DNA of 64,000 nucleotides from Eledone cirrhosa (Eukaryota): contig OZ024742.1 of NCBI GenBank assembly GCA_964016885.1, positions 119,660,001 through 119,724,000 on the forward strand. The letters are read 5' to 3'. Shown here piece by piece: positions 2,450-51,900 of this stretch. Made by a program: the position numbers and the translations under genes. Under the pieces are notes generated by a model that was given only the letters and a program-made list of their open reading frames with translations, ran no database searches and was not told the DNA's origin. How positions within the stretch are numbered: position 1 is the stretch's first letter; each line of letters starts with the position of its first letter.

Positions 2450-3014
2450 TGCCACAACAAGAGTTAAATTAAGAATGCAAAGAGTCAGAACAAATAACAT
2501 AAGGCATCTCATCTGATGCTTAAACAATTCTGCTCATTACTGGCCCTTAATATGTATTTTGATTAATTGGCCCCAGAATGATAAAGGGCAAAAGACAGAA
2601 TGCTAGGACAAATACAATAAGACCTTTTGTCCCACACTTTAACAACCCTGTTAATTTTGTCTCGAATTTGCAATTTAGAAATGGTGGCATTTTATAGAAA
2701 CAATGTATTAAAAGAAAGAGAAGTTATAAAAGAATGGAGGCTGAGACAAAATATAAATTTTTATAAGGTTTCAAAGAAAAGAAATCATTTTGTTCTTGAA
2801 AACAGATATGCATATAATGTAAAAGAATTAAACATTTTAGTAGTATCTTGAAAGAAACTAATTTCACATAATCAGTTTTATTGTTATTATTATTTTGCTT
2901 CATGTTTTATTTCCTCAATATCTTTTTATTTAATTCATTATAAAAATGTGTATACATATGTCTAAATAGATATATAATTATATCTACACATACACATATA
3001 TGCATGCAGATATA

Positions 3015-3320
3015 TCATCATCATCGTTCTCATCATCACTTTACATACTTGCATGGATTAGATGGCTTGTCACAATATATGGCTAGAGAGAGCATAGCTT
3101 CTATGGCTGAATGACCTTTCTTATGTCAACCACTTCATAGTTTGTAAAGAGTTTGTTTTATGTTGGCACTGATAGGGTGGACTAGTTGCTTTTTTATTGT
3201 GGCACCAACACTATGGTTTTACAGAGGGAGTTGAATGCATTTTATCATGGCATCAGTACTACAACTTTACAGTGTAGGTTAAGTGAATTTTATTGTGATA
3301 CCAACACTACCACTTTTCAA
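3015..3320 (-). mobile_element. Old RTE 3'-UTR remnant
   Basis: (TCA)n followed by ttgcatgg and repeated tttacagtgt/ggcaccaac modules; highly diverged. Confidence 0.5.
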
Positions 3321-3974
3321 CATTAGTGTGCTCATTGTGTCCTTGGCCTGGCTGGAAAGGTGAGAGTGGAGTAAGGGGTTACATGCTTCTTGCTAAAGGA
3401 CGGGGTGAAAAGGAGAGCTGGCCTTAAAGAGAAAGTGGTGTATGGTAGCACATTATAGGGTTCCCTCATCTTTGCATGCTGGCATGGTTAGGCAAGGAAA
3501 TAGGGAGCTATTCCAACAATTTCAACTGCATGCCAATATCAACATTATTTACAATCTGTCCACAATACAGGGTCAGATTAAGGAATTTCACTTTAAAGCT
3601 CAAATGAGGCTCCATCGAATAATTAGGAGGCAGGTTATTAATAGGCATCACCCTTAAATGATGTCAAGAGGGATTTTGAGATTGTGACCAAGATTAAACA
3701 GGGGCTAACTATTATTAACAGCTACTGTTTGCTGGGATGTTTCAAGTAGGGTACCGTCAACATGGTTTTTGCTGGGATTCTAAATGGTCATTCAATCATA
3801 AATATCAGAGTAAAGAAGAGGGCTATAGTCAGCCAAATAGCTTTTGCCATTCCCTGGTAGTATGAATATTGCTTAGCATCACTGCTGGAAGCAATACTGT
3901 CAGAAATAGCTAAAATTTTTGTGATATTTCAGGATTGTCTCACAGTACAAGCCCTATGCAAGTGCCTAAATAGC

Positions 3975-4500: not shown

Positions 4501-4745
4501 GTATATGTGTGTGTGTATGTATATATATATATGTAACGGAAGAAATGTGGTAAGGAACCAGGTGGACCATAACGCACCAAAGTACTCAATACTTAGGGTA
4601 GTAGAGTGGGTAATAGGAACAAGTAGTGGGGTCCTACTCGTTCCTATATATATATGTATATATATGTGTGTGTGTGTGGGTGTGTATATATATATATATA
4701 TGTATTTATATATATATGTGTGTATGTATATATATATATATGTAT
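3975..4745. repeat. Compound (TA)n/(TG)n microsatellite with small inserts
   Basis: Direct reading. Contains a tiny RTE tail at about 4029-4075 and the PLE mini-insert. Confidence 0.95.
4534..4646 (-). mobile_element. PLE family 1 terminal fragment (tail plus 13-bp inverted arms)
   Basis: Reverse complement matches 30497-30594. Ends in the hairpin taggaacaagtag-tggggtc-ctactcgttccta. Confidence 0.85.
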
Positions 4746-17160: not shown

Positions 17161-20100
17161 TCATCATCATCATCATCAGGTTTAGCGTCCGTGTTCCACG
17201 CTTGCATGGGTTTGGACGGGGGTTTTCCCACTTGAGGCAAGAGTGGTTGTCTTGCTCGCATAGGACTGTCTGGCGGGTTTTCTACAGTTGGATGCCCTTC
17301 CTAACACCAACCACATTTACAGTGTGGGGCTGGGAGGTTTTTACCGTGTTGCCTACACGGCCACATTACAGCGTGGACTGTCTGGCGGGTTTTCTACAGC
17401 TGGATGCCCTTCCTAACACCAACCACCTTTACAGTGTGGGGCTGGGAGGTTTTTACCGTGTTGCCTACACAGCCACATTTACAGCGTGGACTGTGTGTTT
17501 TTTGTCGTGACACCTACACGATCTCATTTGTTTCGGCCTGGATGTTGTGGGACCAACATAACTTTACATTGAAAGGGGCGGTGTGGGTGGGTGGAGGTGG
17601 TGGGACGGGGGTGTGTTTTGATAGAGATGCCTACTGACTGTAGTAGGTTTTTAGTTTGTATTTAGGTAAGGCGGGTCTTCTCTATTACTGAGTACCGCCA
17701 AAGGTCTCGGTCCAGTGACATTGTCTTGGAGAGGTGTAAGCGTGTGAGGTCGGAATTTATCAGCTCGTCCCATGTTTTTCTGGGTCTGCCTACTCCGTGG
17801 CTACCGTCTATCTTTATTGCCCTGCACTTTGTTATACAGCTGTCGTCTTTCATGCGCATCACGTGACCGTACCAACGTAGCCTTCTCTCGAGTAAACAAC
17901 ATCTGATCCCTCTTATTTCTAATTTTTTCCTTAGTTCGTTTATGCTTTGCCGTTCACGTATATTACTATTGCACATCCAGCGGAGCATGCAAGTTTCGTT
18001 CCTCTCTAGTCTGCGTATATCCTCTGCACACAATGCCCAGGTCTCACTGCCATGCAGCATTGCTGTTCGTATGCAGGCATCGTATAACCTGCCTTTCATT
18101 TTTAGGGAGAACCCTCTAGCGGCTAATAGTGGTATAAGCTCTCTGAACTTTTTCCATCCAGTTCTGACTCTAGCTACTGTACTTTCAGAGCACCCTCCCC
18201 CACTGCTGATTTTGTCACCCAGATAACGGAAGCTGTCCACTATTTCTATAGAACCCTCTGCGCAGTTGAAGGAGCTAGTATTTTGTGGGCACTTGCTGCT
18301 ACTTATTGCACCAGAGCACCGGCCACATGTAAAATCTATGTTCTTAGTTAGCTTACCTGTGATCCCACTACATCTTTTATGCACCCATACTTTGCATTTG
18401 GGACATAAAATGGAGTTTCTACCTACGCCTTTCCTACACACTGAGCATGGCCATTTCCCCGATGGGACCGCCGCCTTATTTTCTTTCCTACAAACTAGAA
18501 CTTTAGTCTTAGCCAGGTTAATTTTAAGGCCTTTTGATTCTAGGCCGTGCTTCCACGTTTGGAATTTCTTCTCTAGTTCGGTCATTGATTCAGCTATGAG
18601 CGTTAGATCATCTGCGTATAGGAGTTCCCATGGGCAGCCGGTCTTGAACTCCTCTGTTATAGCCTGAAGGGCAATAATAAATAGTAGGGGGCTAAGTACA
18701 GAGCCCTGATGGACACCAACTTTTACGCTAAACTCTTCACTATATTCGTTGTTAATTCTAACCTTATTGACTGTTTCTTTATACATGGCTTGTATAGCTC
18801 TCACAAGCCATTCGTCAACACCTAGTTTTCTAAGAGACCACCAGATAATGGAACGGGGGACTCTGTCGAAGGCTTTCTCCAAGTCGACAAAAGCTAAGTA
18901 TAGGGGTTTACTTTTAGCTAGGTACTTCTCCTGTAGTTGTCGTACAATGAAAAGAGCGTCTGTGGTACTTTTGCCTGACACAAACCCGAACTGCATTTCA
19001 TCTAGATCAATTCTCTCTCTGATTAGTTGCGCTATTACTTTTTCCGTGACCTTCATGACCTGGTCGATTAATTTAATGCCTCTATAGTTACTCCTATCTA
19101 GGGCATCTCCTTTTCCCTTATAGCAGTTAACGATGATGCTGCTACGCCATTCCTTCGGAACAACCCCATTCTGTATGACTTGGTTAACTATCCGGGTGAC
19201 CATGGTGTGTCCCACCGAACCAGATGCCTTCAGCATCTCAGCAACTATTTCCGAAGGCCCAGCCGCCTTACCCGTCTTCATATCTTTGATTGCCTTACTT
19301 ATTATACTACCTTCAACTAACACTGCTGGTCCCTCTATTGGATCGATCTGGGGGAGACTGTCTTTCTCCCATTTGTTCTCCTCATTTAGAAGCCTTTCGT
19401 AGTGACACTTCCAAGCTACCTTCTTATCAGCGTCGGTGATGGCAAGTATGCCATCATCGTTAAGTACACACTTCTCCCCGACAATATCACGGTTTTCCTT
19501 GACACATTGCCTGGCAATCCTGAACACCTCACGTTTTTGGTCCTCACGTTGTAGAACATGCTTGAACTTTCTTTCCTCTGCTTCCCTTCTTGCGAAGTAC
19601 ACTTGTCTCCTAGCTTCCCTCCTGTCCACTTGATAGTCTTCTCTACTTCCCCCATCCCGCCATACTTTCCAAGCCTGCTTTTTGGCCTTAATTGACCCCT
19701 CCACCTTACTGTTCCACCACCATGTTACTCTCCTCCTACCTACAGGCCTGCTCCAGCCACAGACTTCGTCTGCCGCCGTCAGCAGGTTTGCTCTCAGGAA
19801 TTCCCACTGTTCCTCTATATTATACGACTCTAATTGCTCTTCCTTACTGTCGAAAGCGTCAAGTAATTTGCTTTGAAATTTATTTCTGGCTATGGGGTCC
19901 TTTAGCTTCCATATTTTTCTCCTGAGGATAGTCCTCTTCCGCTGTCTAGTACGTCTCGTCCTGACTATGAGGTCGCTAATTATCAGTCTATGTTGGGAGG
20001 TGAATTCTTCATGGGGGTGGGATTTAGTGTTAACAACAGACACTCTGTCACGTCTTCTGGTAAGGATATAATCTACCTGGCTTGTGTGTTCCCCCGATCT

Positions 20101-20868
20101 ATAGGTGATCAGGTGATTGTCTCGTTTTTTGAAGTTAGTGTTACAGATAGTTAAGTTATTTGCGTCGCAGAATTCCAGGATTCTGGAGCCTTCCTCATTT
20201 CTAGTACCGAACCCATAGCCTCCATGGATTCCGTCATAGCCGTCACAATGTTGTCCAACGTGACCATTTAGGTCGCCTGCAATAACTATATAGTCACTGT
20301 CGGTTATTTGGGAGGTAGCGAGCATCAGTGTCTCGTAGAATCTGTCTTTTATAGCGCGGGGCAGTCCGGATTGGGGTGCGTACGCAGATATTACTGTCAC
20401 CGTAGTTTTATTGAGGACAAGTCTTATTTTAATTATTCTGTCGTTCACTCTATTTACGTCTATTATCTTATCTGCCCACTTTTCTGCTACCATGATTCCT
20501 ACCCCACCCAACCCATTGTCATTTCCCACCCAGAAAAGCTTATAGCATCGTTCTTTACCCACGATGAATCTAGCCGACCCTCCCCTCCACCTGGTCTCTT
20601 GAATACAACAAACATCGACCTCCTTACGTTCAAGCATTTCTACAACCTCGTTAGAGCGACCCTTTAAGGTGCCTACATTCATGGTACCAACTCTGAAGTT
20701 TTGGATTGCGTTTGGAGGGTGGGAGCGGTGGGGCGCGGGGGGGGGGGGGGTTATGTTAGCCATCCTGGGCCGAAACAAGGAGGAGTGCTTGCATTCTCGT
20801 CCACGAGGTGAATTTGGCTTTATCTTTGGCATTGTCGCTGAGCGTCCACATTTTTCTCTCTTCAACAT
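17161..20868 (-). mobile_element. RTE-clade LINE family A, near full length
   Basis: Single long ORF, ~500-nt 3' UTR with an internal ~112-bp duplication, (TGA)n tail; flanked by TA repeats. Confidence 0.97.
17662..20868 (-). CDS. RTE ORF: APE endonuclease, reverse transcriptase, PHD-like finger (start uncertain; in-frame ATGs also at 20832 and 20763)
   Basis: VGTMNVGTL, CCIQETRW, GDLNGH, SQHRL (APE); FVDLEKAFDRV, QGSVLSPLLF, YADD (RT); CSVC..CPKC..HKRC..CGRC. No internal stops. Confidence 0.95.
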   Translation of the reverse strand: MLKREKCGRSATMPKIKPNSPRGRECKHSSLFRPRMANITPPPPAPHRSHPPNAIQNFRVGTMNVGTLKGRSNEVVEMLERKEVDVCCIQETRWRGGSARFIVGKERCYKLFWVGNDNGLGGVGIMVAEKWADKIIDVNRVNDRIIKIRLVLNKTTVTVISAYAPQSGLPRAIKDRFYETLMLATSQITDSDYIVIAGDLNGHVGQHCDGYDGIHGGYGFGTRNEEGSRILEFCDANNLTICNTNFKKRDNHLITYRSGEHTSQVDYILTRRRDRVSVVNTKSHPHEEFTSQHRLIISDLIVRTRRTRQRKRTILRRKIWKLKDPIARNKFQSKLLDAFDSKEEQLESYNIEEQWEFLRANLLTAADEVCGWSRPVGRRRVTWWWNSKVEGSIKAKKQAWKVWRDGGSREDYQVDRREARRQVYFARREAEERKFKHVLQREDQKREVFRIARQCVKENRDIVGEKCVLNDDGILAITDADKKVAWKCHYERLLNEENKWEKDSLPQIDPIEGPAVLVEGSIISKAIKDMKTGKAAGPSEIVAEMLKASGSVGHTMVTRIVNQVIQNGVVPKEWRSSIIVNCYKGKGDALDRSNYRGIKLIDQVMKVTEKVIAQLIRERIDLDEMQFGFVSGKSTTDALFIVRQLQEKYLAKSKPLYLAFVDLEKAFDRVPRSIIWWSLRKLGVDEWLVRAIQAMYKETVNKVRINNEYSEEFSVKVGVHQGSVLSPLLFIIALQAITEEFKTGCPWELLYADDLTLIAESMTELEKKFQTWKHGLESKGLKINLAKTKVLVCRKENKAAVPSGKWPCSVCRKGVGRNSILCPKCKVWVHKRCSGITGKLTKNIDFTCGRCSGAISSSKCPQNTSSFNCAEGSIEIVDSFRYLGDKISSGGGCSESTVARVRTGWKKFRELIPLLAARGFSLKMKGRLYDACIRTAMLHGSETWALCAEDIRRLERNETCMLRWMCNSNIRERQSINELRKKLEIRGIRCCLLERRLRWYGHVMRMKDDSCITKCRAIKIDGSHGVGRPRKTWDELINSDLTRLHLSKTMSLDRDLWRYSVIEKTRLT

Positions 20869-21188
20869 ATATATATATAGTGTATATATAGTGTATATAT
20901 ATATATAGTGTATATATATATGGTGTATATAAATATAGTGTATATATATATATATAAATAGTGTATATAAATATAGTGTATATATATATATAAATAGTGT
21001 ATATAAATATAGTGTATATATATATATAAATAGTGTATATAAATATAGTGTATATATATATATATAAATAGTGTATATAAATATAGTGTATATATATATA
21101 TATAAATAGTGTATATAAATATAGTGTATATATATATATATATAAATAGTGTATATATATATATAGTGTATATATATATATAGTGTAT

Positions 21189-21226
<38 letters not shown>

Positions 21227-21227
<1 letters not shown>

Positions 21228-21603
21228 CATCATCATCATCATCATCATCATCAACGTTTAACGTCCGTGTTCCACGCTTGCATGGGTTTGGACGGGGGTA
21301 GTCCCACTTGAGGCAAGAGTGATTGTCTTGCTCGCATAGGACTGTCTGGCAGGTTTTCTACAGTTGGATGCCCTTCCTAACACCAACCACATTTACAGTG
21401 TGGGTCTGGGAGGTTTTTACCGTGTTGCCTACACGGCCACATTACAGCGTGGACTGTGTGTTTTTTTGTCGTGACACCTACACGATCTCATTTGTTTCGG
21501 CCTGGATGGCGCGGCACCAACATAACTTTACATAGAACGGGGTGGTGTGGATGGGGTGGGGGTGGCGGCGGGAGGGGTGTATTTTGTTAGAGATGCCTAC
21601 TGG
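21227..21603 (-). mobile_element. RTE family A, 3'-UTR-only copy
   Basis: Matches the 3' UTR at 17161-17637; (TCA)n tail. Confidence 0.9.
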
Positions 21604-22656: not shown

Positions 22657-23470
22657 TGTACATTAAGCTCCAATGTATAACCTGTAAATATTAACTGTAA
22701 CACTAGAAATTTAGTATATAGCATAAGATGTACTGAAGGACAATGTAGAGATAAAAATACAGTGTACATAGGTGAGACAGCTCGTAGTGTAGGGGAACGG
22801 ATAAAGGAACACTGGCGAGACCTTCAAGATAGTAAAGAATCAGCTGTACTCTACCAACATGCTAAAATAGAACATAAGGGTAAATTAGAGGACATAGAAA
22901 TGAAAAATAGAATCTACACACAGAAAAGACGCAATGTTTAGACAAATCACAGAGGCAATAAACATAAAAGAATTACAACCAAAATTAAATAGAAAACATG
23001 AGTGGAACAGCAACATCACAACTTACAATTAAGGACAAAATGAAAACACACACGCACATAGAACAAACAACCAACCAGTAACATGTAAATAAACAAATAA
23101 ATAAACGAATATAAACACACACAGACACCCGGATGTGGCGCATGCGCAGACTGAGCACACAACACACACACACAGAAACAAGATGGCGTAGGACAGAACA
23201 AAGGAGAGGTACAAAAACTAAGAAAAGAAACCCTAGTCACAGAAGAGGTCACAGAATGTGTGACGAAAGAATTTGACAATATATAAACAACCATCTGGTT
23301 GTGGAACGAACCAACCAACCGGAAATAAATAAATTTATTATAATAAATTGGAGTGAAAGCAACGAGTGCGTGTGTTTCTTATTGGCAACATGACCTTCCC
23401 AAAGTATAACAGTATCGGTTTCAACACACGTTTTCAGATAAAGAATCTTGCTAAACAAATTCAGAAACGA
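22657..23470 (+). mobile_element. PLE family 4 3' fragment (frameshifted GIY-YIG endonuclease plus 3' UTR)
   Basis: Manual translation: NCNTRNLVYSIRC...VYIGETARSVGERIKEH...VLYQHAKIEH.../RQITEAINIKELQPKLNRKHEW. Hammerhead-like motif downstream. Confidence 0.85.
23236..23277 (+). ncRNA. Candidate minimal hammerhead with variant core CAGAAGA
   Basis: GUCA-CAGAAGA-G-GUCACA(GAAUG)UGUGAC-GAAA-GAAU-U-UGAC. Confidence 0.55.
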
Positions 23471-23477
23471 TATATAG

Positions 23478-23509
<32 letters not shown>

Positions 23510-24037
23510 ATATATATATATATATATAGTATATATATATAGTATATATATATATATATATAGTATATATATATAGTATATATATATATATATATAGTAT
23601 ATATATATATATATATATATAGTATATATATATATAGTATATATATATATTTATGGTATATATATATAGTGTATATATATAGTATATATATAGTATATAT
23701 ATATATATATATATAGTATATATATATATATATATAGTATATATATATAGTATATATATATAGTATATATATAGAGTATATATATATATATAGAGTATAT
23801 ATATATATATAGAGTATATATATATAGAGTATATATATATATATAGAGTATATATATATATATAGAGTATATATATATATATAGAGTATATATATATATA
23901 TATAGTATATACATATATATATAGTATATATATATATATATAGTATATACATATATATATAGTATATACATATATATATAGTATATACATATATATATAG
24001 TATATACATATATATATAGTATATACATATATATATA

Positions 24038-24081
<44 letters not shown>

Positions 24082-24381
24082 TATATATATATATATATAT
24101 ATAGTATATATATATATATATATACATAGTATATATATATATAGTATATATAGTATATATATATATATATATATATATAGTATATATATATATAGTATAT
24201 ATATATATATAGTATATATATATATAGTATATATATATATATATAGTATATATATATATATAGTATATATATATATATATAGTATATATATATATAGTAT
24301 ATATATATATATACTATATATATATAGTATATATATATATAGTATATATATATATACTATATATATATATATATATAGTAT
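23471..24381. repeat. (TA)nG satellite
   Basis: Direct reading. Confidence 0.95.
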
Positions 24382-24384
24382 ATA

Positions 24385-24496
24385 GGAACCAGTAAGACCC
24401 CGACAGCTGAGCTCAAGCCGTTTCGACGGCTAATTCTGGACTAAATGAACATTTATCCTGGTATTTAAATAGCCGATCTTCTCAAGGGGTAATTCC
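24385..24496 (-). ncRNA. Mirror copy of the family 1 hammerhead
   Basis: Reverse complement of 30402-30513. Confidence 0.8.
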
Positions 24497-25588
24497 ATAT
24501 ATGGTCAAAGTGATTGTCAAAAATCAGTAGTAATTCTGTGGTTGCAAATTAGTAGGGGAGATGGTGGCTAAACCTGCCAGTAGGAGAAAGAGGGGAGGGG
24601 GTGGAGTAGACCCAATCAAGCGTTGGTAGTGCCAGCTACAGCTGGGCATGAGGTCAAAGAAGATACAGGGGAGGGGGAGGGGGAGGAAGTCGGAACGGTA
24701 GGTAGAACAATGGGGGGTAAAAATAGGAAAGAAAAAATACTGAGAGTGAAGAAAAGCAAAAAAGTGTAAAGAAAAAATTAAATTCTACGACCTAGGTGTC
24801 AGGCTATTGTTAGGCGAGAATAAAATAAAGAAAGAAAGAAAGAAGTAAATAAATAAATAAATAAATAAATAAGGAAATAAGTAAAAGAACTAGGTGGGAC
24901 GAATTAAGCAAGGACCCTTTTAAGAGGTATAAGTACGTAAATGATACGGTGACTGGTCAACAAAAGGGGCCAAAATACTAAAGAGACTACCACGAAATAA
25001 ACAATAAAGGTTTCCATCCCGGGCCAGCAACGACCCAGTGCAGCAAAGTGAACTTGTACGACATAATAATTCTGAGTCCCGGGAAAAATATATACTAATG
25101 CTAACTCTAAAAGATCTAAAACAAGCTACATGAAAGTTCGTACGAAATAAAGGTAGAATACGGAGAAATAAGTTCAGAATCCACCCCGCCCAGAAGAAAA
25201 GCGAAGCAAGAAATACTGAAACGAAAAAATAAGGCATAAGTGCCACTAAGAAATAAAGAGGGCACAGAGAATAGTGGGAGCGGTCGGAAAAGGGGGGCAA
25301 GTATCCGGGGTCTAAGCCAACTGCTATAAAGGGCGGAGTCCGCCAAATCTATCAAAGACTAGGGGAGGGGGGAGTGGGGGTACTAAGGCTACATGGGGCC
25401 AAAGGGCAGCCTCGGGTGGGCGAGAAAAGACGCCGACAAAGGAGAAGAGCTGGGGTAGAAGGACAAAGGAGAGAGGGGGGAAGGAAATAAAGGATGCGAT
25501 AAAAGAATACAAAGAAGATCTTACGTCTTCCTTGGCAAGCAGGGGTTACCCATTGCAAAATCGGCAACTGGGGTGTTAAAGCCCTAGT

Positions 25589-27444
25589 CTACCCCCCCGG
25601 GTCATTATGGGGTTTGAGGGCGAGGTAAGTCCTACGCAATCTATGTTTACATGCAGTAACCAGTTCATCTTTCTTGTTTAGGAGTTGGTCCGTCGAAAAC
25701 AGCATTTGTAAAGTTTCCTCCGAGCATAAATTGCACGGACGGCGTCCTCCCGTGTAAGAATTGGCTCTGGACAGTAATCTCCAAGTGAGATCATAGGTGA
25801 TGTTGTTGTCCTTGAGGTCCCATATGTGGCCCGAAAGTGTAGTGGCGTGACGCCGGGCCGGGTTTCGGAAGGTATGTCTATGTTGGTATAGCCGGGTCTT
25901 GAAGTCACATGCGGTAAGTCCTATATAGGCTTTGTTGGAGGTATCCGTCCTCACGTTGCACTGGTAGATCACATTACGGTCTCTGCATCTATTGTCGAGT
26001 GGGCAAATAGATCTATCCGGGCAGTTACACCTCCTGGTCGGTTCTCCACTGCTATTTAGGTTATTTCTGCCATCGGGGTTGAGTTTTTTGTTGTTAGAGG
26101 AGACGATGTTTTGTGCGAAGTTTGGTGTAGTGCTGTAAGAGAGTTTGATGGTATTTTTGTTAATTATGTTGTGGTAGCGGTGTTGTAATGGGAAGTGTTT
26201 TTCAATGAGCCTAAAGAATAGTTTCCCGATGGGAGTAGTCACCTCTGCGTTGTGGGGAGGATTGAACCATGTTACATTGCGTGAGCGGCGGTGTCTCCTG
26301 CTGGTTCCGCTAATGGGATCTGGACAGTAGGATATTTCCTCCCGGAAACCACTCCGCTTGAGGGCCTGGTTGTAATAAGGCGCATGTTCATCGAATATCC
26401 GCTCATTAGCTGACAAACGGGATATGCGGAGGGAGATGTTTTTGACCAGGTTGTTTGTGATGTTCCTAGGATGGTTTGATCGGCGGTGGATGTAGTGCAG
26501 ATTGTCATTAGGTTTCCTGTATGGGTAGTACAGGTCGTTTTCGAGGTCGAGGGTTACGTCCAGGAAGTTTACTCGGGTCAGGGACGTTTGTAGGGTTATT
26601 TTAAATCCCCAGTCGCGGAAGAATCTGATTAATTGTTTCCGGACCCGATCTGTACTACTGGGGTTGTACCCTTTAAGGGTAAGGAGCCCATCATCACGGT
26701 ACAATCCACCACCGAATGCAGGAAACATATCAGTGAGTTTGGCTATTAGGAATAATCCTATAAGATCAGTGACCTCCGCCGAATCCGTGGCGCCCATGCT
26801 GACGTCGAAGGGTGAGTCGGGAGCTCTTTTTATCCATTTAGAGTCGTCAAAGAGTAAGACTGTCTTCCTGGCGTGGAGGATGATTTTTCTTTCCTGGTCG
26901 GTGATGGGCACGAGTGTTTCGGCGAAGTCCAAGGCGGCAGTAAGTAGCGGTAAGGTGATTGAAGCATAGTAGCTCTCTATGTCGAACTGTATGAATTTAG
27001 TTTCTCGTTTATCCTCCATATTGCTGAACCAGGAGATTACTTCCTGGGTGTTGATCCATAGGCTAAGTCGGGTGTGTTGCTTGACTTTTGGTATCACGCG
27101 GTCTAGGATTTTTTTGCTGATTCTCCCTATGTCGGACTTCGTTGGGTTAATAAGCCTGATGGAGGGTTTACGGTCAAAATCGGATTTATGGTCCTTCAGT
27201 GTGAAGTATGGTGTCCGTGGGTCTAGAGGTTCCGTGCGGTCGGCGACCCCGAGGCTGGAGGTGATGTGTTGTCCATCTCGATTTATGTCCTCGATGCAAG
27301 AGTGGTTGGCCTTTTTATAGGTGGAGTTTAGGCTGCTCCTGATCAGTGTGTGGTATCTGTCAGGGTTGACAAAGTATAGGTTCCCAGTTTTATCCGAATG
27401 CACCATGATGTCATTTGTGTTATCATACTCTGTTAAGTTGCTAC
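25589..27444 (-). CDS. Mirror copy of the same PLE RT/GIY-YIG ORF
   Basis: Translation identical to the + arm except across the loop. Confidence 0.93.
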
Positions 27445-29309
27445 AAAAACTCCGTAGCAACTTAACAGAGTATGATAACACAAATGACATCATGGTGCAT
27501 TCGGATAAAACTGGGAACCTATACTTTGTCAACCCTGACAGATACCACACACTGATCAGGAGCAGCCTAAACTCCACCTATAAAAAGGCCAACCACTCTT
27601 GCATCGAGGACATAAATCGAGATGGACAACACATCACCTCCAGCCTCGGGGTCGCCGACCGCACGGAACCTCTAGACCCACGGACACCATACTTCACACT
27701 GAAGGACCATAAATCCGATTTTGACCGTAAACCCTCCATCAGGCTTATTAACCCAACGAAGTCCGACATAGGGAGAATCAGCAAAAAAATCCTAGACCGC
27801 GTGATACCAAAAGTCAAGCAACACACCCGACTTAGCCTATGGATCAACACCCAGGAAGTAATCTCCTGGTTCAGCAATATGGAGGATAAACGAGAAACTA
27901 AATTCATACAGTTCGACATAGAGAGCTACTATGCTTCAATCACCTTACCGCTACTTACTGCCGCCTTGGACTTCGCCGAAACACTCGTGCCCATCACCGA
28001 CCAGGAAAGAAAAATCATCCTCCACGCCAGGAAGACAGTCTTACTCTTTGACGACTCTAAATGGATAAAAAGAGCTCCCGACTCACCCTTCGACGTCAGC
28101 ATGGGCGCCACGGATTCGGCGGAGGTCACTGATCTTATAGGATTATTCCTAATAGCCAAACTCACTGATATGTTTCCTGCATTCGGTGGTGGATTGTACC
28201 GTGATGATGGGCTCCTTACCCTTAAAGGGTACAACCCCAGTAGTACAGATCGGGTCCGGAAACAATTAATCAGATTCTTCCGCGACTGGGGATTTAAAAT
28301 AACCCTACAAACGTCCCTGACCCGAGTAAACTTCCTGGACGTAACCCTCGACCTCGAAAACGACCTGTACTACCCATACAGGAAACCTAATGACAATCTG
28401 CACTACATCCACCGCCGATCAAACCATCCTAGGAACATCACAAACAACCTGGTCAAAAACATCTCCCTCCGCATATCCCGTTTGTCAGCTAATGAGCGGA
28501 TATTCGATGAACATGCGCCTTATTACAACCAGGCCCTCAAGCGGAGTGGTTTCCGGGAGGAAATATCCTACTGTCCAGATCCCATTAGCGGAACCAGCAG
28601 GAGACACCGCCGCTCACGCAATGTAACATGGTTCAATCCTCCCCACAACGCAGAGGTGACTACTCCCATCGGGAAACTATTCTTTAGGCTCATTGAAAAA
28701 CACTTCCCATTACAACACCGCTACCACAACATAATTAACAAAAATACCATCAAACTCTCTTACAGCACTACACCAAACTTCGCACAAAACATCGTCTCCT
28801 CTAACAACAAAAAACTCAACCCCGATGGCAGAAATAACCTAAATAGCAGTGGAGAACCGACCAGGAGGTGTAACTGCCCGGATAGATCTATTTGCCCACT
28901 CGACAATAGATGCAGAGACCGTAATGTGATCTACCAGTGCAACGTGAGGACGGATACCTCCAACAAAGCCTATATAGGACTTACCGCATGTGACTTCAAG
29001 ACCCGGCTATACCAACATAGACATACCTTCCGAAACCCGGCCCGGCGTCACGCCACTACACTTTCGGGCCACATATGGGACCTCAAGGACAACAACATCA
29101 CCTATGATCTCACTTGGAGATTACTGTCCAGAGCCAATTCTTACACGGGAGGACGCCGTCCGTGCAATTTATGCTCGGAGGAAACTTTACAAATGCTGTT
29201 TTCGACGGACCAACTCCTAAACAAGAAAGATGAACTGGTTACTGCATGTAAACATAGATTGCGTAGGACTTACCTCGCCCTCAAACCCCATAATGACCCG
29301 GGGGGGTAG
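27444..29309 (+). CDS. PLE reverse transcriptase plus GIY-YIG endonuclease, 5'-truncated but otherwise open
   Basis: SDKTGNLY, RLINPTKSDIG, FDIESYY, MGATDS, YRDDGL, NFLDVTL, CNC..CPL..C linker, VIYQC..YIGLT, CNLC..E..LLNKKDE..CKH. Confidence 0.93.
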   Translation, partial: QKLRSNLTEYDNTNDIMVHSDKTGNLYFVNPDRYHTLIRSSLNSTYKKANHSCIEDINRDGQHITSSLGVADRTEPLDPRTPYFTLKDHKSDFDRKPSIRLINPTKSDIGRISKKILDRVIPKVKQHTRLSLWINTQEVISWFSNMEDKRETKFIQFDIESYYASITLPLLTAALDFAETLVPITDQERKIILHARKTVLLFDDSKWIKRAPDSPFDVSMGATDSAEVTDLIGLFLIAKLTDMFPAFGGGLYRDDGLLTLKGYNPSSTDRVRKQLIRFFRDWGFKITLQTSLTRVNFLDVTLDLENDLYYPYRKPNDNLHYIHRRSNHPRNITNNLVKNISLRISRLSANERIFDEHAPYYNQALKRSGFREEISYCPDPISGTSRRHRRSRNVTWFNPPHNAEVTTPIGKLFFRLIEKHFPLQHRYHNIINKNTIKLSYSTTPNFAQNIVSSNNKKLNPDGRNNLNSSGEPTRRCNCPDRSICPLDNRCRDRNVIYQCNVRTDTSNKAYIGLTACDFKTRLYQHRHTFRNPARRHATTLSGHIWDLKDNNITYDLTWRLLSRANSYTGGRRPCNLCSEETLQMLFSTDQLLNKKDELVTACKHRLRRTYLALKPHNDPGG

Positions 29310-30401
29310 ACTAGGGCTTTAACACCCCAGTTGCCGATTTTGCAATGGGTAACCCCTGCTTGCCAAGGAAGACGTAAGATCTTCTTTGTATTCTTTTATC
29401 GCATCCTTTATTTCCTTCCCCCCTCTCTCCTTTGTCCTTCTACCCCAGCTCTTCTCCTTTGTCGGCGTCTTTTCTCGCCCACCCGAGGCTGCCCTTTGGC
29501 CCCATGTAGCCTTAGTACCCCCACTCCCCCCTCCCCTAGTCTTTGATAGATTTGGCGGACTCCGCCCTTTATAGCAGTTGGCTTAGACCCCGGATACTTG
29601 CCCCCCTTTTCCGACCGCTCCCACTATTCTCTGTGCCCTCTTTATTTCTTAGTGGCACTTATGCCTTATTTTTTCGTTTCAGTATTTCTTGCTTCGCTTT
29701 TCTTCTGGGCGGGGTGGATTCTGAACTTATTTCTCCGTATTCTACCTTTATTTCGTACGAACTTTCATGTAGCTTGTTTTAGATCTTTTAGAGTTAGCAT
29801 TAGTATATATTTTTCCCGGGACTCAGAATTATTATGTCGTACAAGTTCACTTTGCTGCACTGGGTCGTTGCTGGCCCGGGATGGAAACCTTTATTGTTTA
29901 TTTCGTGGTAGTCTCTTTAGTATTTTGGCCCCTTTTGTTGACCAGTCACCGTATCATTTACGTACTTATACCTCTTAAAAGGGTCCTTGCTTAATTCGTC
30001 CCACCTAGTTCTTTTACTTATTTCCTTATTTATTTATTTATTTATTTATTTACTTCTTTCTTTCTTTCTTTATTTTATTCTCGCCTAACAATAGCCTGAC
30101 ACCTAGGTCGTAGAATTTAATTTTTTCTTTACACTTTTTTGCTTTTCTTCACTCTCAGTATTTTTTCTTTCCTATTTTTACCCCCCATTGTTCTACCTAC
30201 CGTTCCGACTTCCTCCCCCTCCCCCTCCCCTGTATCTTCTTTGACCTCATGCCCAGCTGTAGCTGGCACTACCAACGCTTGATTGGGTCTACTCCACCCC
30301 CTCCCCTCTTTCTCCTACTGGCAGGTTTAGCCACCATCTCCCCTACTAATTTGCAACCACAGAATTACTACTGATTTTTGACAATCACTTTGACCATATA
30401 T

Positions 30402-30513
30402 GGAATTACCCCTTGAGAAGATCGGCTATTTAAATACCAGGATAAATGTTCATTTAGTCCAGAATTAGCCGTCGAAACGGCTTGAGCTCAGCTGTCGGGG
30501 TCTTACTGGTTCC
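30402..30513 (+). ncRNA. Type I hammerhead ribozyme with U3-A8 core, PLE family 1
   Basis: ACCCC-UUGAGAA-GA(U)CGGCUA...UAGCCGUC-GAAA-CGGCU(UGAGCUC)AGCUGU-C-GGGGU. Predicted cut after GUC at 30496. Confidence 0.8.
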
Positions 30514-30594
30514 TATTACCCACTCTACTACCTCAAGTATTGAGTACTTTGGTGCGTTATGGTCCACCTGGTTCCTTACCACATTTCCTTCGTT

Positions 30595-31077
30595 ATATAT
30601 AGTATATATATATATATAGTATATATATATATAGTATATATATATATAGTATATATATATATAGTATATATATATATATACTATATATATATAGTATATA
30701 TATATATAGTATATATATATATACTATATATATATAGTATATATATATAGTATATATAGTATATATATATATAGTATATATATATATAGTATATATATAT
30801 ATAGTATATATATATATAGTATATATATATATATATAGTATATATATATATATATAGTATATATATATATATATAGTATATATATATATATATAGTATAT
30901 ATATATATATAGTATATATATATATATAGTATATATATATATATAGTATATATATATATATAGTATATATATATATATAGTATATATATATATAGTATAT
31001 ATATATATAGTATATATATATATATAGTATATATATATATATAGTATATATATATATATAGTATATATATATATATA
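30595..31077. repeat. (TA)nG satellite
   Basis: Direct reading. Confidence 0.95.
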
Positions 31078-31241
31078 GGAACTGAGGGTCGCATGGTAAA
31101 TAACTGAGAGAGATACAATAGGATTAGAATAGGAGATACAATAGGATCAAATAACTGAGAGAGATACAATAGGATTAGAATACCGCATGGTAAATATCCA
31201 AGTTAATAAGTTAATACTACATCAGTAAAATTAACAATAAT

Positions 31242-31616: not shown

Positions 31617-34600
31617 TAAAATACACGAGCAACTCTGAATCAATAGATGAAATATGAATCTGCGAGCTACCAAGCACCCACGTGAAGCGCCAACCCAGAG
31701 ACCCTCCCCTACGAGTGTCGACAAATGCCCAAAACTCCGAGTTGGTACCATCAATGTAGGCTCAATGAAAGGAAGAGCAGGAGAAATCGTAGAAATGCTA
31801 GAGCGAAAGGAAGTTGATGTATGCTGTGTGCAAGAGACTAGATGGAGAGGAGGGTCTGCTAGAGTCCTTGTAGGAAAAAGCCAGTGCTACAAATTTTTCT
31901 GGGTGGGAAATGACGATGGGATGGGTGGTGTAGGTATACTATTAGCTGACAAGTGGGTAGATAAAGTAATCTCAGTGTACAGGGTAAATGCAAGAATCAT
32001 TAAACTCAGACTAGTCCTGAATAAGACAATTACCACAATAATATCAGCTTACGCACCCCAATCGGGGCTGCCAGACGAACTTAAGGATAGGTTTTACGAG
32101 TCCCTAATACACACTACTGCTCTAACAGACGACAAGGACTTCCTAATCATTGCAGGAGATTTTAACGGACACGTAGGTAAACACTGCGACGGCTTCAATA
32201 GAGTACATGGAGGCCATGGAGTTGGCACAAGGAATGAGGAAGGATTCAGACTTCTAGAATTCTGCGACGCCAATGACATGTCGATATGTAACACAAACTT
32301 TAAAAAACCCGACAACCACCTGATCACCTATAGATCAGGGGAGCACTCTAGTCAGTTAGATTTTATCCTCATCAGAGGACGTGACAGATGGACGGTCGTA
32401 AACACAAAAGCCTTCCCTAGTGAGGAATGTACATCCCAACATAGCTTAGTTGTCAGCGACCTCACGGTCAGAACTAGACGAGCCCTGAAACAGAGGCCAA
32501 CCTGGAGAAGAAAGATCTGGAAGCTGAAAGTCCCCTCAACCAGTAACAGATTTAAAGATATTTTACTCAACGCCTACGACAGTAAAGAAGAACAGATAGA
32601 GACATTTAACGTAGAAGAGAACTGGGAGTTCCTAAAAAATAACTTACTAGAGGCGACGGATGAGGTTTGTGGCTGGAGTAAGACCTCAAGCAGGAGGAGA
32701 GTGACTTGGTGGTGGAACAATAAGGTAGATGAAGCAGTCAAGGCCAAGAGACAGGCATGGAAAGAATGGAAGAACGGGGGGAGCAGGGTACATTACATAG
32801 AGACCAAGAGGGAAGCTAGGCGACAAGTATACTTAGCTAGGAGGGAAGGAGAGGATAGAAAATTCAAGCATGTTTTACAACGTGAGGACCAGAAACAGGA
32901 GGTATTCAAGATTGCGAGGCAGTGTGTCAGAGATAGTTGTGATGTCATTGGAGAGAAGTGTATCCGGAATGATAAAGGTGAGCTTGCCCTCACAAGTGCT
33001 GAGAAGAAAGATGCATGGAAGAGTCATTATGATAGATTACTAAATGAGGAGAATGCATGGGAAGAAGAGACCCTACCCCACGTAGACCCTATAGAGGGAC
33101 CAGCAGTACAAGTCAGCGGCAGCGTAGTAAGTAAGGCAATCAGAGATATGAAGATAGGGAAGGCAACCGGTCCATCGGGTATAGCTGCCGAGATGCTGAA
33201 GGCATCTGGGTCTGTAGGTCACACTATAACCACACGTATCGTTAACCAGGTAATACTAGAGGGGGCCATACCAAAAGATTGGTGCAGTAGCATCATTGTC
33301 AACTGCTACAAAGGTAAAGGCGATGCACTAGATAGAGGAAACTATAGAGGTATAAAGTTGATGGACCAGGTCATGAAAGTAACAGAAAGAGTTATAGCAC
33401 AGCTGATTAGGGACCGGGTGAATATAGACGAGATGCAATTTGGGTTTGTACCAGGGAAAGGCACCACTGATGCGCTCTTCCTTGTGAGGCAATTACAGGA
33501 AAAGTACCTAGCTAAAAGTAAGCCACTCTACTTGGCATTTGTCGACCTTGAGAAAGCCTTTGACAGAGTTCCACGTGCAGTAATCTGGTGGGCTCTTAGA
33601 AAACTAGGAGTAGATGAATGGCTTGTGAAAGCGGTACAAGCCATGTATAGGGGAGCAGTCAGCAAAGTTAGGATTGGCAATGAGTATAGCGAGGAATTTA
33701 GCGTACAGGTTGGGGTCCACCAGGGCTCTGTTCTTAGCCCTCTCCTGTTCATCATAGTCCTGCAGGCAATAACGGAGGAGTTTAAGACCGGATGCCCATG
33801 GGAACTCCTGTATGCTGATGACCTCGCACTCATAGCTGAATCTATGGTAGAACTAGAGAATAAATTCCAAACCTGGAAGCAGGGACTAGAGAGAAAGGGC
33901 CTCAAAGTCAACATGACAAAGACTAAGGTCCTTATAAGTAGACGAGAAAACAGAACCCAGATCCCCTCAGGGAAATGGCCTTGCTCAGTATGTAGGAAAG
34001 GTGTAGGTAGGAACTCCATTCTTTGCCCCAAATGCAAACAATGGGTACACAAGAGATGTAGCGGGATCTCAGGAAGCTTAATTAAGAATGTAGGATTCAC
34101 ATGCAGCAGCTGTGCTGAAACAGCAAGCAAACAGCCACAGGAAACAAGTACCACCAATCTCTGGGAGGGCCCTGTAGAAACAGTAGACAGCTTCTGCTAC
34201 CTAGGTGACCGAATTAGCAACGGAGGTGGGTGCTCAGAAAGTACAATAACTAGGGTAAGAACGGGATGGAAGAAGTTTAGGGAACTACTACCACTGCTAG
34301 CTGCAAAAGGCTTCTCCCTCAGAATGAAAGGCAGACTGTATGATGCGTGTATCCGAACAGCGATGTTGCATGGTAGTGAGACCTGGGCGCTGAAGGTGGA
34401 AGACTTACGTAGATTAGAGAGAAACGAAGCCTGCATGCTCCGATGGATGTGTAACAGTAATATACGTGAACGACAAAGCATAAATGAATTGAGAGAGAGA
34501 CTGAGCATAAGAGGAATCAAATGCTGCGTGCAGGAGAGGCGGTTACGCTGGTATGGACATGTGATGCGTATGAAGGATGACAGCTGCATAAAAAGGTGCA

Positions 34601-35077
34601 GAGCACTAGAAGTTGATGGAAACCGCGGAGTGGGGAGACCCAAGATGACTTGGGATGAGGTGATAAAAGCCGACCTTACCCAACTACACCTCTCAAAGTC
34701 AATGACACACGACCGTGACTTCTGGCGTCACGCAGTAATACAGGGTACCCGACCTCCCATGGGTACATGCTGAAGCATATAAACAATATGCCCCCCCCCC
34801 CACCGCAAGGTGGTCGTGGAGGTGCCACGGCAAAAAAGCACCCAGCCCACACTGTAAAGTGGACGTGTAGGCGCCACGAAAAAGCACCCACCACTCACTG
34901 TAAATGAGGTTGGTGTTAGGAAGGGCATCCAGCTGTAGAAATCAAGCCAGATCAGTTCCTGTATGAGCAAGGCATGGTCAGCCGACCAGACACTGCCCAC
35001 AACAGGACAACCCGTCTAACCCATGCTAGCGTGGAAGAACGGACGTAAAACGGTGATGATGATGATGATGATGATGA
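31617..35077 (+). mobile_element. RTE-clade LINE family B, apparently full-length ORF (5' end may extend to 31078)
   Basis: Intact ORF, ~300-nt 3' UTR, tail ggacgtaaaacggtgatgatg. Confidence 0.97.
31654..34773 (+). CDS. RTE ORF: APE endonuclease, RT, PHD-like finger (1039 aa)
   Basis: VGTINVGSM, QETRW, GDFNGH, SQHSL, DLEKAFD, YADD, CSVC..CPKC..HKRC..CSSC. Confidence 0.96.
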   Translation: MNLRATKHPREAPTQRPSPTSVDKCPKLRVGTINVGSMKGRAGEIVEMLERKEVDVCCVQETRWRGGSARVLVGKSQCYKFFWVGNDDGMGGVGILLADKWVDKVISVYRVNARIIKLRLVLNKTITTIISAYAPQSGLPDELKDRFYESLIHTTALTDDKDFLIIAGDFNGHVGKHCDGFNRVHGGHGVGTRNEEGFRLLEFCDANDMSICNTNFKKPDNHLITYRSGEHSSQLDFILIRGRDRWTVVNTKAFPSEECTSQHSLVVSDLTVRTRRALKQRPTWRRKIWKLKVPSTSNRFKDILLNAYDSKEEQIETFNVEENWEFLKNNLLEATDEVCGWSKTSSRRRVTWWWNNKVDEAVKAKRQAWKEWKNGGSRVHYIETKREARRQVYLARREGEDRKFKHVLQREDQKQEVFKIARQCVRDSCDVIGEKCIRNDKGELALTSAEKKDAWKSHYDRLLNEENAWEEETLPHVDPIEGPAVQVSGSVVSKAIRDMKIGKATGPSGIAAEMLKASGSVGHTITTRIVNQVILEGAIPKDWCSSIIVNCYKGKGDALDRGNYRGIKLMDQVMKVTERVIAQLIRDRVNIDEMQFGFVPGKGTTDALFLVRQLQEKYLAKSKPLYLAFVDLEKAFDRVPRAVIWWALRKLGVDEWLVKAVQAMYRGAVSKVRIGNEYSEEFSVQVGVHQGSVLSPLLFIIVLQAITEEFKTGCPWELLYADDLALIAESMVELENKFQTWKQGLERKGLKVNMTKTKVLISRRENRTQIPSGKWPCSVCRKGVGRNSILCPKCKQWVHKRCSGISGSLIKNVGFTCSSCAETASKQPQETSTTNLWEGPVETVDSFCYLGDRISNGGGCSESTITRVRTGWKKFRELLPLLAAKGFSLRMKGRLYDACIRTAMLHGSETWALKVEDLRRLERNEACMLRWMCNSNIRERQSINELRERLSIRGIKCCVQERRLRWYGHVMRMKDDSCIKRCRALEVDGNRGVGRPKMTWDEVIKADLTQLHLSKSMTHDRDFWRHAVIQGTRPPMGTC

Positions 35078-41216: not shown

Positions 41217-44005
41217 TTATTTATTAAAATAACAGATTAAAGATTAAGCAAAGAATCGCTGCTTCTCACCCTTAACGGGATCTTTTGAGACGTTTGTGGA
41301 AACGTTCCCGAGCAAAGAACGGAAAAAAAAAATATTTTACGTCATTATTTGGAGCGGTGAAAAACAATTACGCGGAATGACAGAACCACGTTTATGTATA
41401 AAAGAAGTCGTACGCTAATATTCTATTAGGTGGTTCATAGAGACGTTCTCTGGCAATGAACGGAAAAAACGAAGATAATACGTCATATGTGGTGTATGGA
41501 GAACAATTGCACGCAAAGACAAAACCACGTAAATGGTATAACTGAAGTCGTAGACTAAAATTCTAACAAGGAAACCGAATGGGCTTCAGAGTTAAGAATA
41601 AAGTAAATAAAATACAGAGGTAATTGAAATTAAATAAATACATACACGCATCCATATACGTACATACACAAGCATACGCGAAAACACTCGCCATAGGTAT
41701 ACAAATACACGCACATATATATATGAATGTGTGTGTGCATGTATACAAATAATTAAATAAACGTATATAAATAAATAAATACGTATATAACAAACGCACG
41801 CACATACCTACATGTAAATACACATATGTTCGGAGACAACGTCAACCAAAACACGAAGTACACATATACACATACCCTACATACGTACGAACCCGCATAC
41901 TCACACAGACGCAAAACACACGTATACACATAACCAAACGCATATGTACCAGAATATATAAGATATACGCCATAACATATACAATCAAATATACGTACGA
42001 GAAAGTATACGTCCCTTCACAAAACATACAGGTAATATATACTTACCTATACAAATAAGTAATGATATAAACATAACATATACTTAGCTACCACACCAAG
42101 ACGTAAAATATCCGCGTATAGATCGTACTATCCGTTAGGGTATAATGTGGGGCTGTAATACAGGAAAGTTTTGAGCAATTTATGTTTACAAGCCGAAATT
42201 GCCTCAGATTTTTTGTTTAAGATGTGGCCTTTGGCGTAGAGTATTTCCAGAGTATTACAGTTAGTACTAGCTACAGGGTTGCACGTGTTCCTACCTAGGG
42301 CTAGGTAGTTTAGCTAAATTTGAAGCTGTGATGTTATGTGCAAGGTTAGGAGTCGTTGAGTAAGAAATTTTAATAGTATTTCTACTAAATATTTTACTAT
42401 CTTTATGTGTAGGGGGAAAATGCTTCGTATTAAGGGAGTGGAAGATCTTAGCTAATGGTGTGGCCACCTCCATATTATATGGTGGGTTATACCATATAAT
42501 GCGTCGGGATCTATTTCTTCTAGGTCTATTCTCGTACTCTGTATATGCTACCTTATCGACAAATCCACTCCGAGCAAGAGCTTCATCGTAATATGTGGAA
42601 TGGTCGTTGAAAATATGCTCGTTAGTAGACAGACGGGAAAGCCTCAAAGAAACGTTTCTTACCAGATTCTTGGTTATGCTGGCAGGATGGTTAGAATGCA
42701 ATTAAGCGTATCATTCGGCTTTCTATACGGGTAATGCAAGCCATTCGATAAATTAAGGGTAACATCGAGGTAATTAACGACTGAGAGGTTGGCCTCAACC
42801 TGTATAGAAAGGTTGAAGCCTTTAAAGAAGGCTGTGAGTTCTTTTCTGAAGCTGTCGCAAGCACGTGGACCGCACTTAGTCATGGTCAAAAGACCATCAT
42901 CACGATACAAACCACCGTCCACGTTGGGGAATTCGTCCTTGATAGAGAAAATAAGGAAAAGGCCGATAGGATCAGTAACCTCCGCAGAATCGCTGGCGCC
43001 CATACTCACGTCGAATGGGGTACTATTAGATTTTTTAATCCAAATAGAGTCGTCGAAATTAATCACTGACTTACGGGCATTGAGGATGACATCAACTTGG
43101 AAACACTTAACCACTGTGACTGTTTTAGCGAAATTGATAGCTCTAAGGAGAAGTGGTAAAGTGATGGCGGAGTAGTAATTATTGATGTCGAATTGGATAA
43201 AACGACAATGTTCCTTGTTGCATATGCCGTTGAACCAATCAATCACCGCGAAAGAATTGTTCCACAGTGCAAGAGGGGCCAAACTTCTAATTTCAGGTAT
43301 AATTCTATCAAGAATTCTTTTACTAAGTCTACCTAAATCGGACTTCGTAGGGTTAATAAGCCGAATAGAGGGGTTGTTCGGAAAATTGGATTTGTGATCC
43401 TTCACGGTAAAGTGGGGAGAAATAGGGTCCAGAGGTTCGGTCCGGTCCAGGATGTTGAGATCAGAGGTGATTTTAAACCCAGCATCGTTGATTTCATTAA
43501 TGACGCACCGATTAGTTTTACGGTAATCCTTAGTTACAGCATTATGTAGTAGTTGATGATAAGTACTGCACTCCACTTGATATAGGTTGCCAGTTTTGTC
43601 GGAATGGACGTGCACAGCATTAGAATCCTTAATAGAACGAATTCTATTCCTCAGGTCCTGCTGGAAGGAATTGCTCCTATTCCGGAATTGATACTCCGTA
43701 TGAGTTCCAAGACATCATTTTCGAAGGGTAGCAATGCTGGGTTACACGGAGGGTTATTATAGGTTTAAACACAAATTTATCCTGTTTGTTGTCTGCTTTT
43801 CCCTGATTATCGAAATAAAAGGCACGCCAACGCAACCTTTTAATGAACGTGTCTGTTTTCTGTATCAGGAATTTAGGTACGTTTTCCTGCTTGGTACGGG
43901 TATGTTCTTTGTAGAAATATTCAGATGTTGTTTCTGCATGATGAATATAAGTCAATAAAGTTCTCAACCGAGGGAGCCAAATAGTAATAATAATAAATTT
44001 GAAGA
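41217..44005 (-). mobile_element. PLE family 2, degraded near-full-length copy
   Basis: ATG at 43939 (MQKQHLNISTKNIPVPS), FIKRLRWRAF, SDKTGNLY, FDINNYY, YRDDGL; frameshifts. GIY-YIG core deleted near 42290 with ILNKKSEAISACKH retained; ~900-nt 3' UTR. Confidence 0.92.
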
Positions 44006-51090: not shown

Positions 51091-51298
51091 AAGATAGTCA
51101 GCAGTATGTCAACAGGGGACAGGACAGCGACCTTAGAGTAATGTGGTGATGGTGGGGAGCGAGTGTAGGCGTTATTGTTATTGTGGTGACGGGGGGGTCA
51201 GTGAGATATAGATATATAGTATATATAGTATATAAAGATATATAGTATATAAAGATATATAGTATATAAAGATATATAGTATATAAAGATATATTGTA

Positions 51299-51900
51299 TC
51301 ATCATCATCATCATCATCATCATCACCGTTTTACGTCCGTTCTTCCACGCTAGCATGGGTTAGACGGGTTGTCCTGTTGTGGGCAGTGTCTGGTCGGCTG
51401 ACCATGCCTTGCTCATACAGGAACTGATCTGGCTTGATTTCTACAGCTGGATGCCCTTCCTAACACCAACCTCATTTACAGTGAGTGCTGGGTGCTTTTT
51501 CGTGGCGCCTACACGTCCACTTTACAGTGTGGGCTGGGTGCTTTTTTGCCGTGGCACCTCCACGACCACCTTGCGGTGGGGGGGGGGGGGGGCATATTGT
51601 TTATATGCTTCAGCATGTACCCATGGGAGGTCGGGTACCCTGTATTACTGCGTGACGCCAGAAGTCACGGTCGTGTGTCATTGACTTTGAGAGGTGTAGT
51701 TGGGTAAGGTCGGCTTTTATCACCTCATCCCAAGTCATCTTGGGTCTCCCCACTCCGCGGTTTCCATCAACTTCTAGTGCTCTGCACCTTTTTATGCAGC
51801 TGTCATCCTTCATACGCATCACATGTCCATACCAGCGTAACCGCCTCTCCTGCACGCAGCATTTGATTCCTCTTATGCTCAGTCTCTCTCTCAATTCATT
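51299..51900 (-). mobile_element. RTE family B, 5'-truncated young copy
   Basis: Almost identical to 34483-35075. Confidence 0.96.

Follow-up and report, generated by a model that had tools for sequence, protein, structure and literature searches.

A perfect Penelope-like palindrome in Eledone cirrhosa and the paired 3' ends of its family

We analysed a window of 64,000 nucleotides from Eledone cirrhosa (assembly GCA_964016885.1, contig OZ024742.1, positions 119,660,001 to 119,724,000 of the forward strand; coordinates below count from the first letter of the window), in which a Penelope-like retrotransposon (PLE) lies as a perfect 6.1-kb palindrome inside a (TA)n-G satellite. Our reading, to which we give a probability of roughly 0.55, is that the palindrome is a single, very recent insertion made by priming at both ends, the two complementary DNAs (cDNAs) having been joined through a native 4-nt microhomology. 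The evidence comes from the locus itself and from the family to which it belongs, whose inverted insertions pair two fixed 3' ends.

The palindrome and its locus

The natural unit of the family, taken from one tandem array, measures 3531 bp, with an ATG at position 91 and an open reading frame (ORF) of 717 residues; unit positions in the following list refer to it.

23461..24381, no strand: left target flank, (TA)n-G satellite
24382..27444, minus strand: left arm, unit positions 389-3451; its outer end is the family's fixed short 3' end
25589..27442, minus strand: mirror of the truncated ORF, residues 101-717
27441..27457, plus strand: junction CTAC-AAAAACTCC-GTAG, a 4-nt microhomology (27441-27444 / 27454-27457) around a 9-nt loop, the loop being part of the right arm
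27441..29309, plus strand: truncated ORF for a putative reverse transcriptase (RT) with a C-terminal GIY-YIG-type domain, residues 96-717, with DKT, YRDDG, CxCx5C, IY..YIG, CxxC and CxH recognised by eye
27454..30516, plus strand: mirror part of the right arm, unit positions 389-3451
30517..30596, plus strand: right-arm tail of 80 nt, unit positions 3452-3531, stopping at the family's fixed long 3' end; its terminal TAT is common to the flank
30597..31079, no strand: right target flank, the same satellite in the same orientation

No perfect inverted repeat in the window is longer than that formed by the two arms, of 3063 bp each with 0 mismatches. An initial annotation, made from the letters alone, had described two arms that looked identical (unchecked by base), a 9-nt loop between them, an open frame in each and a last stretch of about 78 nt on the right arm only, and all of this is borne out. 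More specifically, the loop occupies 27445-27453, and the one-sided tail measures 80 nt against the family unit, or 78 nt if the TA-like terminal letters are counted as flank. Element sequence begins at unit position 376 in the right arm and at 389 in the left, which leaves an offset of 13 nt between the two cDNA stops. Each arm holds one open frame, closed by a TAG stop and 5'-truncated relative to the 717-residue ORF, of which the first 95 residues are missing in the right arm and the first 100 in the left; frames of 662 residues, counted from stop to stop, are a read-through of the loop into the opposite arm. Because the start codon and the upstream promoter are missing from both arms, the insert is predicted to be unable to make the full protein. 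The annotation had also called the arms far longer than the usual inverted repeats. This needs narrowing, since many inverted copies of the family have arms of 1-2.7 kb and what is rare is such a length together with a tiny spacer.

The centre of the palindrome consists of native element sequence. The loop had been read as plausible PLE coding sequence closed by ctac/gtag, with a comparison against family copies as the proposed check; loop and both stem halves (CTAC/GTAG) are indeed native in 28 of 28 other fetched copies, and together have 308 exact matches in the genome. The fold-back junction occurs a single time in the assembly, with one mismatch allowed. The window leaves the native sequence exactly one base beyond CTAC, so that the microhomology at the junction is 4 nt long. 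As a hairpin in the cDNA, the junction reaches only -0.2 kcal/mol.

The satellite runs in the same direction on both sides of the insertion, with TATAG:CTATA counts of 45:2 in the left flank and 29:2 in the right, and the sequences beyond the satellite do not align with each other. The unmirrored flanks and the one-sided tail therefore argue against a fold-back read, which would have mirrored both. No target-site duplication was discernible within the satellite flanks. As a whole, the palindrome is a real-looking, very young insertion. The left satellite starts where another repeat family ends (23330-23460), and that family adjoins TA at 2,436 places.

A search with the arm in the 3.0-Gb genome gave 1172 candidates; the 41 matches scored were all about 100% or 100% identical, some of them in tandem arrays. 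Family copies include 3531-bp tandem arrays as well as inverted arms. Among the motifs of the 717-residue ORF, QFDI, YRDDG and IY..YIG were recognised by eye, together with those of the Hydra clade: SDKTGN (DKT replacing DKG), the linker CNCPDRSIC (CxCx5C), CNLC (CxxC) and CKH (CxH). Full-length copies have RWR instead of RWK, in a region missing from the arms of the window. The nearest Atlas clusters (0.95-0.99) carry HTH_animal, RVT_1 and GIY-YIG. Pfam gave no match for the truncated or the full protein, a PDB sequence search with the 717-residue protein gave none either, and a single-sequence AlphaFold model of the protein was unusable, with a predicted local distance difference test (pLDDT) score of 32. 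The tandem and inverted copies and the one-sided tail uphold the annotated PLE identity, and the element appears to be a young PLE with Hydra-clade motifs, a candidate member of that clade by these motifs and its TA targeting.

The age of the insertion can be judged from its arms, which have zero private variants and are identical over the compared parts to unlinked copies such as that at locus L001. It follows that the insertion is very recent, as had been annotated, and that its two arms are expected to be identical, given the 100% match of the unlinked copies.

Fixed 3' ends, mini copies and their predicted RNA signals

Copies of the family end at two fixed points that lie 80 nt apart, a long end at unit position 3531 (22,312 exact junctions with TA) and a short end at unit position 3451 (7,040). 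The left arm of the palindrome stops at unit 3451 and thus at the short end. To follow the use of these ends, about 140 loci were fetched and mapped onto the unit. Both outer ends were callable in 37 of the 61 long head-to-head junctions found by internal patterns (24/61 not callable), and 36 of these 37 pair a short end with a long one, with one short-short and no long-long pair. A pattern specific to the sub-lineage of the window gave 56 matches, which amount to 31 insertions with TA flanks at nearly all ends; 26 of the 31 are two-armed and head to head, and short plus long is found in 26/26. The two-armed head-to-head shape is the norm of the family. A positional pairing count (30/43 short ends) was rejected as it over-counts, with at least locus L040 consisting of two separate elements.

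The lengths of the arms are informative as well. Over 39 loci the short-end arm was the longer in 22, the long-end arm in 15, and the two were about equal in 2, with no correlation between arm lengths (rho 0.07). Among the two-armed siblings of the window insertion, the long-end arm reaches further in 13/25 and the short-end arm in 12/25. Ten of these 12 longer short-end arms are a single unit with no tail available for copying, and the tailed arm is the shorter one. Because the tailed arm is thus the shorter in 10/25 siblings and its partner carries no tail, each outer end needs a priming event of its own. The initial annotation had proposed that a 5'-truncated cDNA snapped back and copied itself over 3 kb. 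The native loop with its 4-bp stem and the one-sided tail had been annotated correctly, but the left arm halts at the fixed short end, and snap-back alone is therefore insufficient, since a self-copying cDNA should have continued through the tail. The pairing and the length figures are hard to obtain from one self-copying cDNA and fit two target-primed starts.

Most sampled short ends belong to palindromes of about 200 bp (minis), and of the 84 arm ends of minis, 62 fall at unit 3387-3398. A gapped-pattern search found at least 7,171 inversion junctions at this hotspot genome-wide. The hotspot and the fixed short end lie close to two predicted signals, which are mirrored in the left arm:

24385..24496, minus strand: mirror of the predicted hammerhead
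24439..24471, minus strand: mirror of the predicted promoter
30402..30513, plus strand: predicted hammerhead of type I, with TTGAGAA at 30413 as its U3-A8 core, GAAA at 30474 and a predicted cleavage site following GTC at 30496
30427..30459, plus strand: predicted promoter within loop II of the hammerhead, with TATTTAAA at 30427 and an initiator-like TTAGTC (A at 30456, unit position 3391)

The box that we take to be TATA-like lies 29 nt upstream of the presumed initiator, TTAGTC, at unit 3391, where the minis turn. Unit position ~3391 may accordingly be the 5' end of the RNA, at which both mini cDNAs would run off. Raw Illumina reads from restriction site-associated DNA sequencing of two other samples (X10, X11) contain the short end followed by TA in 3181 and 2772 reads; their coverage changes in a step at 30454-30465, and strand-switch joints begin at 30452-30462. 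Since short ends and joints are present in raw short reads, the layout is no long-read artefact at the level of the family.

Further minis were met in the window and in the fetched loci. At 60314-60521 a 208-bp mini of the same family lies in TA repeat, with a short-end and a long-end arm that both turn at unit 3387. Locus L077 (G000:C1:27009246-27010422) contains, behind a start-site junction, a small tandem of 257-bp units (3388-3531 plus 1-113) resembling a short non-autonomous repeat. At L072, L095, L160 and L166, minis and longer copies are nested end to end, which suggests that TA-like element ends or their flanks can serve again as targets.

Between the closing stem of the predicted hammerhead and the short end there is a distance of 3 nt, the short end being the further downstream. 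The unconstrained minimum-energy fold of 30402-30513 is a type I three-way junction, and U4, G5, A6, A8, GAA and UC are invariant in 16/16 copies, with N7 variable. A U3-A8 variant is known from Schistosoma PLEs (PMC4209133). Weighing against a hammerhead are a C3 opposite A8 in 6/16 copies, an ordinary fold energy (z -0.49) and the lack of compensatory pairs or covariation among the 16 copies. The canonical CTGA-N-GA core is absent from the unit, and Rfam gave no hammerhead match, only hairpin-type microRNA matches below the gathering score. What remains of the hammerhead that had been annotated in each arm is a predicted type I fold with a non-canonical U3-A8 core.

The window also holds other repeats. 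A relic of a second, related PLE family lies at 42562-43714 on the minus strand (53% identity over 332 residues to the 717-residue protein), and a 92-bp piece of the long end of the present family, 95% identical, at 4534-4625 on the minus strand. Long open ORFs resembling long interspersed nuclear elements (LINEs), with an endonuclease, an RT and then a PHD finger, are found at 31651-34773 (plus) and 17662-21357 (minus); the 3' part of the former recurs inverted, largely 100% identical, at 51207-51900.

Closure of the centre

The symmetry of the palindrome was compared with that of 94 long junctions, the window being excluded and duplicates and cases with both ends at the start being dropped. 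The offset between arm starts has a median of 1002 nt and fits random pairing. Among the siblings, the offset is 11 nt at L162 (2.7 kb), 63 nt at L148 and 85 nt at L141 (5.5 kb). In the sub-lineage, less than ~0.3% diverged, the arms of 24/25 siblings differ by over 60 nt, in most cases by hundreds to thousands. Of the near-perfect cases encountered, that in the window is the longest, yet it lies on a continuum, as the symmetric extreme of an ordinary product.

A second hotspot of arm ends lies at unit 2444-2453 (window ~29511-29520), with 9/188 ends, including those of L148, L150, L154, L161, L164 and others. It lies just 5' of a C-rich tract, right after TTAG, and may represent an RT stop at G-quadruplex-forming cDNA or an RNA end.

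Among young long junctions 33/44 are insert-free, and 21 of these 33 have at least 2 nt of homology, compared with 15% expected by chance. As microhomology of this length is usual at unequal junctions, the 4-bp stem of the window does not single out snap-back. The other 11/44 carry inserts, several of them templated from nearby arm sequence; at L152, the insert is 12 nt of sense sequence whose template lies 14 nt from the arm end, a short snap-back (1/44).

In the mechanism that we favour, both nicked target strands would prime reverse transcription of the element RNA, one start lying at the fixed short site and the other at the fixed long site 80 nt further on. The two cDNAs would then be joined head to head through the CTAC/GTAG microhomology, probably by microhomology-mediated end joining. 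That both stopped within 13 nt of each other may reflect a template RNA broken at this point, comparable to the minis at the predicted cap site, or may be chance. By analogy with in vitro work (PMC11167929), the fixed ends are presumably RT start sites. The mechanism builds on what is observed directly, namely that there are two fixed ends, that insertions combine one of each, that TA is targeted, that the loop is native, that junctions have microhomology and that the insertion is young. For the family as a whole, the balance tips slightly towards two-ended, target-primed reverse transcription by an RT-endonuclease dimer as the normal route, with tail and inverted copy as one phenomenon. Runs to the cap would yield the more than 7,000 palindromes of ~200 bp, similar to miniature inverted-repeat transposable elements, and rare runs on broken RNA would yield the multi-kilobase perfect palindromes.

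Several observations weigh against this mechanism. The loop junction is crossed by no contig or read: four contig sets gave only the native upstream sequence, from samples not shown to be the assembled individual, and X1, where a family of multiple hundreds of copies is covered at a depth of ~9, cannot serve to test the junction. Five of the 31 sub-lineage insertions have one arm only. Near-symmetric junctions (30 nt or less) are in slight excess, with 5/94 against 2.2 expected by re-pairing (p=0.069), and offsets within 15 nt number 3 against 1.1 expected (p=0.09). The minis, whose arms share a template end, join nearly blunt (0-1 nt of homology in 21/22), and the window junction with its 4-bp hairpin stem differs from them. 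In the youngest sub-lineage, where the overlap of the arms amounts to 21.8 kb, both arms have 5 private variants in common (at 4 loci) and 16 are confined to one arm, and arms are generally nearer to each other than to the reference. The both-arm variants could stem from arm-to-arm copying, from one RNA or a source copy outside the sample, from gene conversion or from polishing. The arms of the window, having no private variant, cannot discriminate copying from two passes.

The closest alternative retains both primers and replaces the join by a snap-back, such that the long-end cDNA folds on CTAC/GTAG and copies itself until it meets the short-end cDNA. This amounts to the annotated model with a second primer. 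In its favour, the junction coincides exactly with a native hairpin, the offset being 13 nt, and the true short snap-back at L152, the turn of L136 on a native TCGA palindrome, the mild excess of symmetric junctions and the five variants common to both arms point in the same direction. However, the hairpin is weak at the energy given above, the sole clear snap-back insert measures 12 nt rather than kilobases, the symmetric excess is not significant, and the other near-symmetric sibling, the near-palindromic L162, has 1 nt of homology only. The sequence of the locus cannot separate the two closures; we hold the snap-back to be possible, at about half the weight of an intermolecular join of two cDNAs.

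Long perfect palindromes are known to lose their centres asymmetrically. All insertions of the family might be born as perfect hairpins, by snap-back or by antisense self-priming (PMC3846280), and become unequal by later central deletions, the present copy being untrimmed. This would account for short-end arms that are longer than their partners and for the variants common to both arms, but at a divergence of less than ~0.3% the arms already differ by over 60 nt in 24/25 siblings, the 9/188 arm ends at unit 2444-2453 look like a synthesis stop, and the fixed short end is left unexplained, which makes such trimming unlikely.

Least probable of all is an artefact, be it a chimeric long read that had folded back or a polishing step that equalised the arms or shrank a larger spacer: the junction has no independent read, and the six one-base indels of L162 hint that such loci sequence badly, but the flanks are no mirror images (the satellite keeps its direction and the outer flanks are unalignable), the left arm lacks the tail and has the biological short end as its terminus, 100% identity is expected given the equally identical unlinked copies, and head-to-head joints of the family are present in raw short reads.

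Relation to known elements and significance

In LINE-1 twin priming, both target strands prime cDNA and the pieces are joined by microhomology, with the second primer internal and the pieces without overlap. In the PLE, by contrast, each arm begins at a fixed 3' site and the overlap of the two is complete, so that inverted repeats result.

A second point of comparison is the Poseidon PLE of Anolis, studied in vitro (Frangieh et al. 2024, PMC11167929), whose protein, a predicted dimer, nicks and extends both strands. The likeness lies in the two RT start sites bounding the tail, the extension of both strands and the AT-rich target. Poseidon belongs to a different clade, and its starts lie inside the ORF start, whereas here they lie upstream of the ATG, the tail ending 90 nt before it. 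In the available portion of that paper, the two starts are not used to derive the inverted structure, and the steps after priming are left untested.

The C-terminal endonuclease-positive PLEs of the Hydra clade (Craig et al. 2021, PMC8557442) are alike in the order of the predicted RT and GIY-YIG-type domains, in DKT, CxCx5C, CxxC and CxH, in the (TA)n target and in a hammerhead, here a predicted one, near the 3' end. In contrast, the unit of 3531 bp exceeds the size of generally less than 3 kb given there, RWR takes the place of RWK, and the predicted hammerhead, with its U3-A8 core and a 40-nt loop II, is not canonical. The tail of 80 nt compares with 30-40 nt stated for PLEs in the same paper, which also notes a 5'-truncated inverted copy for Penelope-13_HM. 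The published PLE layout combines a partial tandem with an inverted 5'-truncated copy, a one-sided tail and junction palindromes (PMC8557442, PMC3846280). The insertion in the window shares the head-to-head junction, the tail at one end and the junction palindrome, here with 3.06-kb arms and a 9-nt spacer. While PMC3846280 reads the junctions as antisense-template self-priming, the short-plus-long pairing points to two target-primed starts.

Neither the short-plus-long rule nor minis centred on the start sites were found in the literature searched, with most subscription papers, including those on Drosophila Penelope, outside its coverage; the available portions of PMC13282606 and bioRxiv 10.64898/2026.07.22.740005 contain nothing on a structure of this kind. 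Truncated copies in inverted orientation, palindromic junctions and tails at one end only had been published before, and the value of the present observations lies in the family-wide pairing rule. The origin of the tandem and inverted structures of PLEs and of their tail is termed undefined in PMC8557442. In the genome of E. cirrhosa one family is represented by very young events in their thousands, together with intact tandem copies, and because the strict short-plus-long rule ties the two start sites known in vitro to the inverted layout, the question becomes directly testable. The palindrome itself matters mainly as a pointer to this rule; it is also a long perfect palindrome of natural origin, and how stable it is could be traced in a population.

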